Shown here one piece after another: positions 1,435 to 42,116 of a stretch of 64,000 nt of DNA. Under the pieces are notes generated by a model. It saw only the letters and a list, made by a program, of their open reading frames with translations. It was not told the origin of the DNA and ran no database searches. The first letter of the stretch is position 1. Every line of letters starts with the position of its first letter. This DNA comes from Vicugna vicugna (Eukaryota): NCBI GenBank assembly GCA_013265495.1, contig MU057521.1, positions 248,001-312,000 on the forward strand, in the 5' to 3' direction. A program made the translations under genes and the position numbers.

Positions 1435-2200
1435 TATTTTGAATACTTGCTGAGTGTCATCCTATATATCAAAGTACAATGAATGGTTAGGACTAAAGGC
1501 ACAGAAACAAATAGCAATACCCTTCTCTCAGCTGACATGCTCATGTGAGAGACAGAGGGAAAAACCAGTCAACACTTTATAACAGAGTGTGATGTGTTGT
1601 ATCTGATGAGCACAGGGTTCATCAAGCTCCCATAATGGTATGTAACTCAAACAGTTATCAAGCCGTCTTCTTGAGAGTGACTGACACATGTGGAACCTGG
1701 AATTAGGAAGAGTAGGAGCTAGGTCAGTTAAAAAGATGTGACAGAAAAACATTCCAGTAAGCAACAAATTAATTTCTAAATCATGAGAGAGCAAAGGCTA
1801 CTGCAGAAATGTTAAGTACTTGAAAATAATGACATATGTGGGTTTTAGCAGAGATGATTTTGAAGAGTTAAGTAAAAAACAGATTAGAGCATAATTATGC
1901 TTGTGTTCCAAATGTTTGATCTCTATCTTGAAAATCACAGAAAAAAAAAGAAGGTTATTAAGAATTATAGTTGATGTGTTTATTCCAAGCATTTCAGCCA
2001 CGGAGAAAAATATGGAAGGGTTAAAAATAAGAGGTATGCAGGAAGAGGCTACTGCAGTAATTCAGGCAGCAGGTGAGGAGGATGTGGTGGTGTACCTGAA
2101 GCCATGGAAAAAATGCAAAGAAAGAAAAGAGTAACAAGGATAGAGACCTTGGTTGTGCTAATATTCCAGGAATGGGTCTAGGGACAATGAAAAGTGAAAG
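1435..2200 (-). mobile_element. L2 LINE remnant
   Basis: Purine-rich antisense L2 pattern ('acttgctgagtg...', 'aacattccag', 'actgcagtaattcaggcag'). Confidence 0.55.
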
Positions 2201-38335: not shown

Positions 38336-38578
38336 AGCAGTATAATGTGATGGCCTAAAGCAGGGGGACTTCTACATCAAAATCCGAGTTAAGATCTTCA
38401 TTTCAACCTCTGCAAGTTACTTACTCTTTCTCTGCCTCAGTTTCCTTTATTTGTAAAATGGAGAGCATCAGAGTGCCCACATTATATATTTGTTGTGACC
38501 ATCAAATGAGATAATGAGTAAGAAGGAGTTAGAGCTATGCCTTGCATGTATTAAAAGCTCTATTATTATTGTTATTGC
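38336..38578 (+). mobile_element. Near full-length MIR SINE
   Basis: 'gcaagttacttactctttctctgcctcagtttcctttatttgtaaaatggag...tcaaatgagataat...ctattattattgttatt'. Confidence 0.85.
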
Positions 38579-38751
38579 ATTTGTATGCTTTCACACTTGT
38601 TAAATATCTTCCCACCACACTGGATTTCTCTCTGCTCCTTGAGCCAAGTGGTATTTATTTCTGCTCCCCTTGACAATTGACAATCTTGACAATTTCCATA
38701 TGCTTTATCCCACCTGGACTGGAGGGGCTTTTTCACTACCCTATCTAAAAT

Positions 38752-39129
38752 TTCTCTTCATCTTTTTTTTTTTTTCTGCAAAGAAATTTGAACTTTATTC
38801 TGTGTATCGTTGGAAACAACAAATAGCTTTTGGGCCAAGAGTGATGCAATCATGGCGACATGTTAGGAAGGTTATTCAGGAGGTACAGGGCAGAGCTGTG
38901 GGTGGAGGCTGGGAGCCTGGCCAGGGGTCTGTTGCCAGTGTCCAGGTGAAAGTTGCCAAGGACTTTCTGTGCCGGACACTGCGCTCCCTGGGTGTCCAGG
39001 TGTGCTGAGTCTCTGTCGTACCTGACGAGGTAGCCATAATTGCGGCTGAGGTCACGTCTTTCTCCAGCCGCTTCACCCATGTCCTCACAGCAGGGAGCAT
39101 CGGCCCCACCCATGATTCTCTTCATCTTT
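38752..39129 (-). pseudogene. FLAD1: L1-mediated, 5'-inverted processed FLAD1 retrocopy (TSDs included)
   Basis: 14-bp TSD ttctcttcatcttt at 38752-38765 and 39116-39129; T13 at 38763-38775; tttatt (AATAAA on -) at 38794-38799; TT/AAAG L1 endonuclease-type site on - strand. Confidence 0.85.
38962..39116 (+). pseudogene. FLAD1: FLAD1 coding fragment (molybdopterin-binding domain), the inverted arm of the retrocopy
   Basis: Translates [50 protein letters not shown]; recalled human FLAD1 is [54 protein letters not shown] at 39006-39008 fits CGA>TGA decay. Confidence 0.93.
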
Positions 39130-42116
39130 AATTTTCAGTGATGCCCCTTTCTTTTCCTTCATGGCACACACAACAATTTGTTTTGAAACGTACACTCACC
39201 CTCATCCATTAAGCGTTTTTCTGTCTTACTGAATTGATAGACTTCAGAATGTTAGTTACTATGTAGGCTTTGTTCACCTTGGGCCTACCTCAGTCCTGGA
39301 ACATGTTAGGGTGTCAATAAATATGCACTGAGTGAATAGACAAGTCAATGAATAGAAGTGCTTCCTGTATTGGGGTCCAACTTTCCCAGTCGGGGAGCAG
39401 GCCTGCCTAAGAGAAGATGAGGAGCAACAGGTAGAAGGTATTGTGGACAGAGGACACAGACAAGGCAGTGCTTCCTCTGGAAGCATCACAGAATGTGAAA
39501 CATTTCAGATGTAGGCGTGATTATTTTTACAGTAATCAAGAGCTAATTCATGTTCAGATAATACTACCTTTTTCTGTAGTAGGAAGTGTATGTTTATAAG
39601 AGTAAATTCATCTTTGTTAGATCTAGAAATGGCTTACGTTTCAAATGAGAAGCTCATGGAAGGCATAAGCGGTGCCTAAGACAAGGTATTGAATAAATTA
39701 GATGCTCAGTAAATACCAATTAATTAATAAATGGGTTAACAGTTCCCTTGAGGTGGCTGAGTAGCTGTAACTGCCTACTTGATTCTAACTGACTGGTATC
39801 TTAATTCCACATTTTGATGGAAGCAATCCTGCCAAGTGAAATTGGCTGCAATCTCTGGCTAAGCTCAGCTTATTTTAATATTTTTGGCTTTTTCCCAAAA
39901 TATTTATAGTTTTCTTTTCACCTTCAGAGATTTACTGTTCAACCATGGTTCACAGAGGCTAAAAGTATCAACCTTAATACATATACAGTGTTGCTGTCAA
40001 TGTCTTGAACAAAATTTTCTCATTCCAAGGGTATGGCAAAGAATTTCCAAGCATAAATTATATTCCTTCTCCTACTTTCATTTAGACATTTTTTACTGAG
40101 AGCAGATTATACACCAGACATTACCTTTAGAGGTGATCTCTGTGTGACATAAGAACCTTGTTCTCCTTTTAGTGATGTGCATGCTACACATGCCTCGACT
40201 TTCTCTGTGAATTTTTGAGGTGCTAAGAAAGAACATTCTAGAAGGTGTCTGGTATGTACAATGAAAAATTAAGCAGTAGTATTATTACCATTATTGATAA
40301 AAATGGTGCCAGGAAATCCTCTCCCAAAGAGTATGCATCCACCTCAAAGAGTAGGATGGGAGTTGTATGAAGACTCACTTTGGTAAGACAAATTCCTTGA
40401 AGTGAAGGGTTAACTTTTAACTGTGTAAAATACTCACACAACTCTTGGTTTTCCTAGGGACAAGCCCGTTTACTACCTCGAGCAGGGCATTGTGAGAGTG
40501 ATGGAGACTTTTTATGAGCCTCCTTCTCCATGTCTCCTTTTGCAATCTCCCCTCTACCCATTTCCTCACTCAGGTTCTCAGGGCCTTGATACTGGTCCTT
40601 AGCAAAAACTTGAACATTGTACCTCACAGACCCTAAAAATACATCCTCCTCCTTTTCTCCACCATCTTTTATCTCATGGCTCAACTCTCCATCCTGTTAA
40701 ATACCAACAGGTGACAAATCAGTCAACCAGCTCTCTCTGTTAGGAGCCCCAATCCTAAGGGAGGTGGGGGAGACACAAAGATTCTTAATGACAAATCTTT
40801 CTATTGTTCACCTTTCCTTAGTTTCTTTTATTTTCTACGAATACTAACAACTTTAGTTTCTTTCCCCCATTTGTTTCATGTGCCCCACAGTAGCAATGTA
40901 ACCTTTCTCCCCCTAAAACAGATTAGAAAAGTACATTTATTTAACTAATATTTTTAATCTGATAACTCTTTTCTTGTTTTAATCTATTCATTGCTTATGT
41001 CTCTCCTCCTTTGCACTTACCTTCTAATTAACCTCATCAAATCTCTTCTTATCCAATTGCTGATTCCAAACTAGACTTTCGAGTTTGAACTTTGTTAAGA
41101 TGGCAAAACATCTCCAATCATTCATTCAATAAACATTGATTGGATATCAGTGTACCTGAAACTAGAGTTGTCCCAGGAACGTCAAAATCCCCACCCCTCA
41201 CTCTTGTTGAGTGAAGGCATACATAAAGTACATAGTATTAATAGTAAAGAAAAGAAAGCAAACATTGACCCAGTTTGTGATTTGTTTAAATACAACCATG
41301 AAGTCAGAATATGTATCAAAACTTGAAATAGGTGTTCTAGACGTTTGAGCATTAGGAACGTCAAGTTGAGTCATACTGGTGAACTGCTGCCCCATCTTGT
41401 TTGTATTACAAAGGAGAAGTGTGTTTTGGGGCATGTTTTGGTTTTTCCCAGTCCTAATATATACAGAAGGGGAAGAGAAGGCAAGAACTCTGAATTTTCT
41501 GTCTCATAAAGAAAAGATTCAGTATCTTTCACTAACATACTATTTACAGTTAGTGGGTTTAAGTTTAAAATTCCAAACAAAAGTCTCTACCATTGAAATT
41601 TTTATGACTCAGATAGAACCCTGGATAGAAAAGAGATCCTAAGGTCCAAAGAGGCATATGAAACCTCTCCCCAGAGCCCTAGAGAGCAGCACAGGACACT
41701 GATCTAAAGTGTTGGCACATCTTATGCCTGGTCTCCCACTGACATTAACAGCATGCCTTCTGGGAGATGCAGAACTACCTCTGATAGAAGGACCAGGGAT
41801 TCATTCTGAGGGTGAAGGCCAGCAAGTTCACAGAAGCTATTGTGGTGCACAGTGGGAAGTGACTGCAAGTTGATGGTGAGTGTGCTTTTCCGGGCATGAA
41901 GAAGGGTTTTAGTACTGCAGATGCAATTACCACATAGGAAGGAACCAGCACCCTTACTGAAATTAGAACATAAAATGAGTCAGGCTGGTGGACAAATTGC
42001 AGTCCATGGCCCTGCTGTGTTAGTGACCTATATTCACTCTCCAAACTTAGTATGAAGCTCCGTATCTGGAGCTAGTGATTTAGTGGACGGTAGTAAGGAA
42101 GGTAATGTGCAGTCAA

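Follow-up and report, generated by a model that had tools for sequence, protein, structure and literature searches.

The insert at positions 38752-39129 of the window (the whole stretch of 64,000 nt of Vicugna vicugna DNA that was analysed) is very probably a 5'-truncated, LINE-1-made processed retrocopy of a spliced, polyadenylated RNA that was antisense to FLAD1, and not a copy of FLAD1 mRNA. Four observations carry this reading: the hallmarks of the insertion, the co-linearity of the two arms with the antisense strand of the parent FLAD1 locus on contig C10312, the exact loss of a GT-AG intron between the arms, and a tail that is placed at the parent's AATAAA site. The features of the insert are given below in their order on the minus strand.

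39130-39131, minus strand: TT of the LINE-1 endonuclease-type target TT/AAAG, just 5' of the insert (read from the sequence).
39129-39126, minus strand: AAAG of the same target, which opens the 14-nt duplication (read from the sequence).
39116-39129, minus strand: 5' target-site duplication, AAAGATGAAGAGAA (repeat search, sequence and alignment to the parent).
38964-39115, minus strand: copy of the upstream exon of the putative antisense transcript, 152 nt, or 153 nt with the shared position 39116 (parent C10312:1530355-1530506, plus strand).
39006-39008, plus strand: TGA in the FLAD1 reading frame, in place of the parental CGA (Arg), a change at a CpG.
38962-38965, minus strand: exon-exon junction ...AA/GT..., between 38964 and 38963, where the parent has a 513-nt GT...AG intron.
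38774-38963, minus strand: copy of the terminal exon of the putative antisense transcript, 190 nt (parent C10312:1531020-1531209, plus strand, inside a FLAD1 intron).
38794-38799, minus strand: AATAAA polyadenylation signal, in the same place in the parent and 18-20 nt ahead of where the A-run departs from the parent sequence.
38766-38773, minus strand: remnant poly(A) tail, 8 A that have no template in the parent, and up to 3 further A that also belong to the duplication.
38752-38765, minus strand: 3' target-site duplication (repeat search and sequence).

Intron loss, a tail that follows the polyadenylation signal, a target-site duplication, a TT/AAAG target and 5' truncation are together the established outcome of LINE-1 target-primed reverse transcription, and the consensus target of the LINE-1 endonuclease is TT/AAAA-like. 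The two copies of the duplication, each reading TTCTCTTCATCTTT on the plus strand (38752-38765 and 39116-39129), are identical at 14 of 14 positions and came out as the top direct repeat family in the repeat search. The last A of the 5' copy, at 39116, matches the parent as well, which leaves 1 nt of microhomology at the 5' joint. At the other end, the last base of the insert that matches the parent is 38774 and the A-run starts at 38773 on the minus strand. The insert and one copy of the duplication together measure 364 bp. A first-pass annotation of this DNA had listed the TT/AAAG target, the 14-bp duplication, the AATAAA, the A-run and an antisense FLAD1 piece, and we found every one of them at, or within 2 nt of, the place it had given. 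Its view that a FLAD1-related processed RNA had been copied in by a LINE-1-type target-primed insertion is likewise borne out by the intron loss, the tail, the duplication and the target site, and LINE-1 is the likely agent.

The complement of the upstream-exon copy encodes a fragment of a FLAD1 coding exon (FLCRTL...GPTHD). Read on the plus strand, positions 38964-39125 give a FLAD1 fragment with one TGA, which the Pfam model MoCF_biosynth recognised above its curated cut-off (E = 1.6e-7). When the genome was searched in six frames with the protein of the parent FLAD1 exon, the insert was found at E = 2.3e-23 and 91% identity with 1 TGA, and it was the sole match besides the parent gene. Together with a parent that carries the FLAD1 domain set, these results establish the FLAD1 identity that had been proposed for 38962-39116. 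It had also been remarked that the piece has a single stop and few amino-acid changes and that the open reading frame track hides it; we count one TGA and one amino-acid change, and the piece does form the tail of the plus-strand ORF 38643-39008.

The parent is an intron-containing FLAD1 gene on the minus strand of C10312, with Pfam hits on separate exons. MoCF_biosynth (7.3e-22) and FLAD1_M (3.9e-25) fall in one large exon at 1529781-1530533, and PAPS_reduct (6.3e-7) falls in downstream exons. The closest named relatives of the large exon are mammalian FAD synthases, at 94-96% identity, and over the aligned part it is 100% identical to Camelus FAD synthase isoform X1. On the opposite strand, the antisense splice donor falls 27 nt within the MoCF-domain coding exon, and the FLAD1 intron that separates the exon ending in ...DEILK from the one starting with GHTQ... 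contains the 190-nt terminal exon. The FLAD1 stop codon and last coding exon are found at L004 6064-6291, about 4 kb from the 190-nt arm.

Two alternative upstream coding exons of FLAD1 were also seen, at L002 2801-2977 and 2332-2721 on the minus strand (C10312 ~1531850-1532500). One of them reads MASRASE...IIIVGDEILK, as in cattle, and the other corresponds to the N-terminus of P0150, the isoform X1 protein of Camelus. Between these alternative exons and the MoCF-domain exon is the intron that holds the antisense terminal exon.

To place the two arms, we used window:38766-39115 (minus strand) as a query against the 2.03 Gb assembly, in which the window is C317:248001-312000. The insert matched exactly three places in its own genome: its own position and two plus-strand pieces of C10312. 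Query positions 1-154 aligned to C10312 1530355-1530508 with 98% identity and positions 153-342 to 1531020-1531209 with 99% identity; the E values of these DNA matches (1.2e-68 and 6.3e-91) are far beyond chance. Both arms therefore keep at C10312 the strand and the order that they have in the insert, with a spacing of 513 nt, and the strand in question is antisense to FLAD1. Since the arms share orientation and order with their source locus, no inversion has taken place.

A spliced parent was then built by script, with 1530354-1530506 joined to 1531020-1531209, and aligned to window 39116-38774. Over 343 nt there was no gap, and the 4 mismatches were all transitions, 2 of them at CpG. Three lie in the upstream-exon copy (39096, 39006 and 38993) and one in the terminal-exon copy (38932), and the change that makes the TGA is at a CpG. 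The 513 nt omitted from the copy (C10312 1530507-1531019, plus strand) begin with GTAGGT and end with CAG; the 2-nt overlap of the arms permits three placements of the joint, one of which is the canonical GT-AG. The acceptor is not a textbook one, as its pyrimidine-rich tract is set back to 16-30 nt before the AG and purines predominate in the last 15 nt. Because the omitted stretch has GT...AG ends on the antisense strand, the gap is a removed intron and not the joint of an inversion. The 3' end of the parent reads AATAAA, 14 nt, and GCAGAA/CGTTCG, and the copy carries the A-run in place of CGTTCG. On the 5' side the parent exon runs on beyond the end of the insert (...GPTHDDVTFEAV on the FLAD1 strand), so the copy is 5'-truncated.

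The first-pass annotation had interpreted the insert as FLAD1 mRNA with a twin-primed 5' inversion; the 3' arm would then be the sense end of the 3' UTR, and the 5' arm would be coding sequence from further upstream that had been inverted. A 5' arm that is antisense to the FLAD1 coding sequence, with the poly(A) on the other arm, is what such an event would leave behind, and twin-primed inversions are known among processed pseudogenes. However, twin priming needs two arms in opposite orientation relative to the source RNA, and here both lie on the plus strand of C10312, in the insert's order, with a joint that falls exactly at the GT...AG ends of an intron on the antisense strand. Nor can the 190-nt arm be the "sense arm" of FLAD1 mRNA for which it was taken, as its place is not the 3' UTR but the opposite strand of a FLAD1 intron, some 4 kb away from the stop codon; apart from itself and the C10312 pieces, the insert matches nothing in the genome. 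We consider the twin-priming explanation extremely unlikely and reject it. Another possibility is an event at the DNA level, with a duplicative transposition of FLAD1-locus DNA followed by a deletion of 513 bp. Nothing specific speaks for it, and it is raised only because both arms follow genomic DNA in a co-linear order. Such a deletion would need to hit GT...AG exactly (a chance of ~1% by our own estimate, which takes uniform base use and three placements), the copy would have to end 18-20 nt past the AATAAA and gain an A-run that is not templated, and a flanking 14-bp duplication at TT/AAAG would be needed as well. We give this explanation practically no credence.

Independent support for the antisense template came from a second species. 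As a query for proteins of 48-154 residues in a large protein collection we took the minus-strand frame (window:38853-39116) that stays open across the junction. There was one candidate and one match, DAA31853.1 (TPA: hypothetical protein BOS_2864 [Bos taurus], 76 aa), which is identical to the frame of the insert at 57 of 74 residues, with no gaps and straight across the junction AQK/VLG. Unspliced read-through of the parent gives a different peptide (plus-strand ORF L002 754-1041). Codon by codon, all of the first 50 residues of DAA31853.1 (50/50) are compatible with the reverse complement of cattle FAD synthase over its residues 37-86; the same test against camel FAD synthase gave 48/50, and the best other offset gave 16/50. 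Past the junction the cattle protein has 26 residues, 24 of which align with the camel terminal-exon reading. From the codon register and the alignment it follows that DAA31853.1 reads the cattle FLAD1 exon backwards and then enters the homologue of the terminal exon at the same donor. Donor position and reading of the terminal exon are thus common to the cattle model and the putative vicuna template.

Cattle FAD synthase is DAA31852.1, the accession that precedes DAA31853.1, and both are on a contig of 121430405 bases; the consecutive accessions and the equal contig size suggest that DAA31853.1 sits at the cattle FLAD1 locus. According to the available text of PMC3120881, the UMD2/UMD3 cattle annotations were made via the NCBI pipeline and every transcript in them is at least partly backed by mRNA, EST or protein. 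DAA31853.1 probably belongs to this annotation set, to judge from its TPA label and locus tag. Taken together, the vicuna and cattle data point to a FLAD1 antisense transcript that is common to even-toed ungulates.

It could be speculated that the template was instead a one-off, an aberrant or cryptic antisense read-through or a chance-spliced transcript, and that the retrocopy records transcriptional noise and no regular conserved gene. The genome holds just one copy, the acceptor is of moderate quality, and our literature search found, among the matches listed, no paper describing a FLAD1 antisense RNA, all of which is compatible with noise. However, this is unlikely, as the donor position recurs in the cattle model together with a terminal exon that is homologous (24 of the 26 residues beyond the junction), as the accession of the model directly follows that of cattle FAD synthase, and as the template had a proper AATAAA and a canonical GT-AG intron. 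A more far-reaching proposal is a conserved spliced FLAD1 antisense gene, present in at least camelids and cattle, that makes a small protein or acts on FLAD1 isoform choice, with the copy as a source of trans-acting antisense RNA. The antisense frame keeps exact codon register with FLAD1, and chance alone would be expected to leave such a frame open over a GC-rich coding exon. Camel and cattle moreover have their stops at different positions. For these reasons the coding reading is weak; we regard the proposal as a whole as quite improbable. If it were true, the retrocopy would duplicate that antisense gene, and the trans-acting RNA that it might provide would be directed against FLAD1 mRNA. 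We favor the reading of the insert as a processed copy of a spliced antisense RNA, and the copy itself is probably non-functional ("dead").

The antisense frame that is open across the junction extends in the window over 38850-39134 (minus strand, 94 codons) and in the parent from L002 754-1041 (plus strand) into 1501-1614 (plus strand).

The phrases 'FLAD1-AS1', 'FLAD1 antisense' and 'antisense to FLAD1' had 0 occurrences among the papers matched and listed. Literature searches on lncRNA retrocopies under several phrasings found no paper, which shows only that those phrases are unused. The AL451085.x lncRNA names may be a lead to a FLAD1 antisense RNA. No location for the AL451085.x lncRNAs is given in the available text of PMC11129764.

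On the reading that we favor, the target would have been nicked at TT/AAAG and the poly(A) tail of a cellular RNA would have primed on the T-rich nick. Reverse transcription would have copied 343 nt before the cDNA was joined through the 1 nt of microhomology, and a staggered second cut would have given the 14-bp duplication. The upstream exon of the template would run antisense through the MoCF-domain coding exon, and its terminal 190-nt exon, with the AATAAA, would lie in the adjoining upstream FLAD1 intron. With this layout, the template was probably a cis natural antisense transcript of FLAD1.

The insert resembles the processed pseudogenes made by LINE-1 in its intron loss, its poly(A) after an AATAAA, its 5' truncation, its 14-bp duplication and its TT/AAAG target, and also in being a single dispersed copy on a contig other than the parent's. 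In contrast to ordinary processed pseudogenes, its template would not be the mRNA of the coding gene that it resembles but a spliced transcript of the opposite strand. At first sight it is also like the twin-primed insertions of LINE-1, Alu and pseudogenes, as its coding piece is opposite to the poly(A) arm and abuts the 5' duplication; unlike in those, a single strand of the parent carries both arms in co-linear order and their joint is the removal of a GT-AG intron. With cis natural antisense transcripts the putative template shares its course across a coding exon (that of FLAD1) on the opposite strand, its splicing and its polyadenylation, but in vicuna it is known only through its DNA fossil. 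Retrocopies can themselves give rise to antisense RNAs, as the available text of PMC5408686 and PMC7290577 describes; the insert would be the reverse situation.

The copy differs from its parent at 4 of 343 nt (1.2%), in agreement with the earlier judgment that the insertion is young. At least 2 of the differences are derived in the copy, a change of Arg to stop and one of Gly to Ser, both at positions where camel and cattle share the residue. By our estimate from mammalian neutral rates, this would put the insertion at a few million years ago, roughly 10^6-10^7 years, and the Poisson range is wide.

In the left flank, an old dispersed repeat was seen only at ~38404-38563, about 190 nt from the insertion site; a search of the own genome gave 26 matches to it, which are 70-95% identical and have a well-kept core of ~50 nt. 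For the right flank (39130-39600) no second match was found in the own genome. The suggestion that an L2 element reads through the insertion site was not confirmed by these own-genome searches of both flanks. In the whole window (1-64000) no Rfam family reached its gathering score.

G+C content in the window varied from 32 to 43% in 2-kb steps and was highest at 16-18 kb and 50-52 kb. Word shares of the insert region were 0.64-0.79 in DNA runs of organisms A-E and 0.12-0.36 in RNA runs, some of them labelled reproductive-system; these shares are not diagnostic. A genome that lacks the insert would still contain most of the words through its flanks and the parent gene, and the words of the FLAD1 exon alone would by our count account for ~0.13, so that the RNA runs are at most a lead to expression.

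For the annotation of this locus, a plausible twin-priming mechanism is replaced by another origin, in which the coding piece opposite to the poly(A) arm came from an antisense RNA. As a rule, coding fragments that are oriented in this way should be mapped back to their parent locus before an inversion is called. Protein-based retrocopy finders would see here just a short, reverse-oriented FLAD1 fragment with an unrelated tail. The kind of event is an ordinary one for genome biology, and the unusual point is the antisense template. The copy is, on our reading, a DNA fossil of a spliced, polyadenylated FLAD1 antisense transcript. Because it is heritable, that transcript must have been present in germ-line cells while LINE-1 was active, and the template RNA was thus probably expressed in the germ line.
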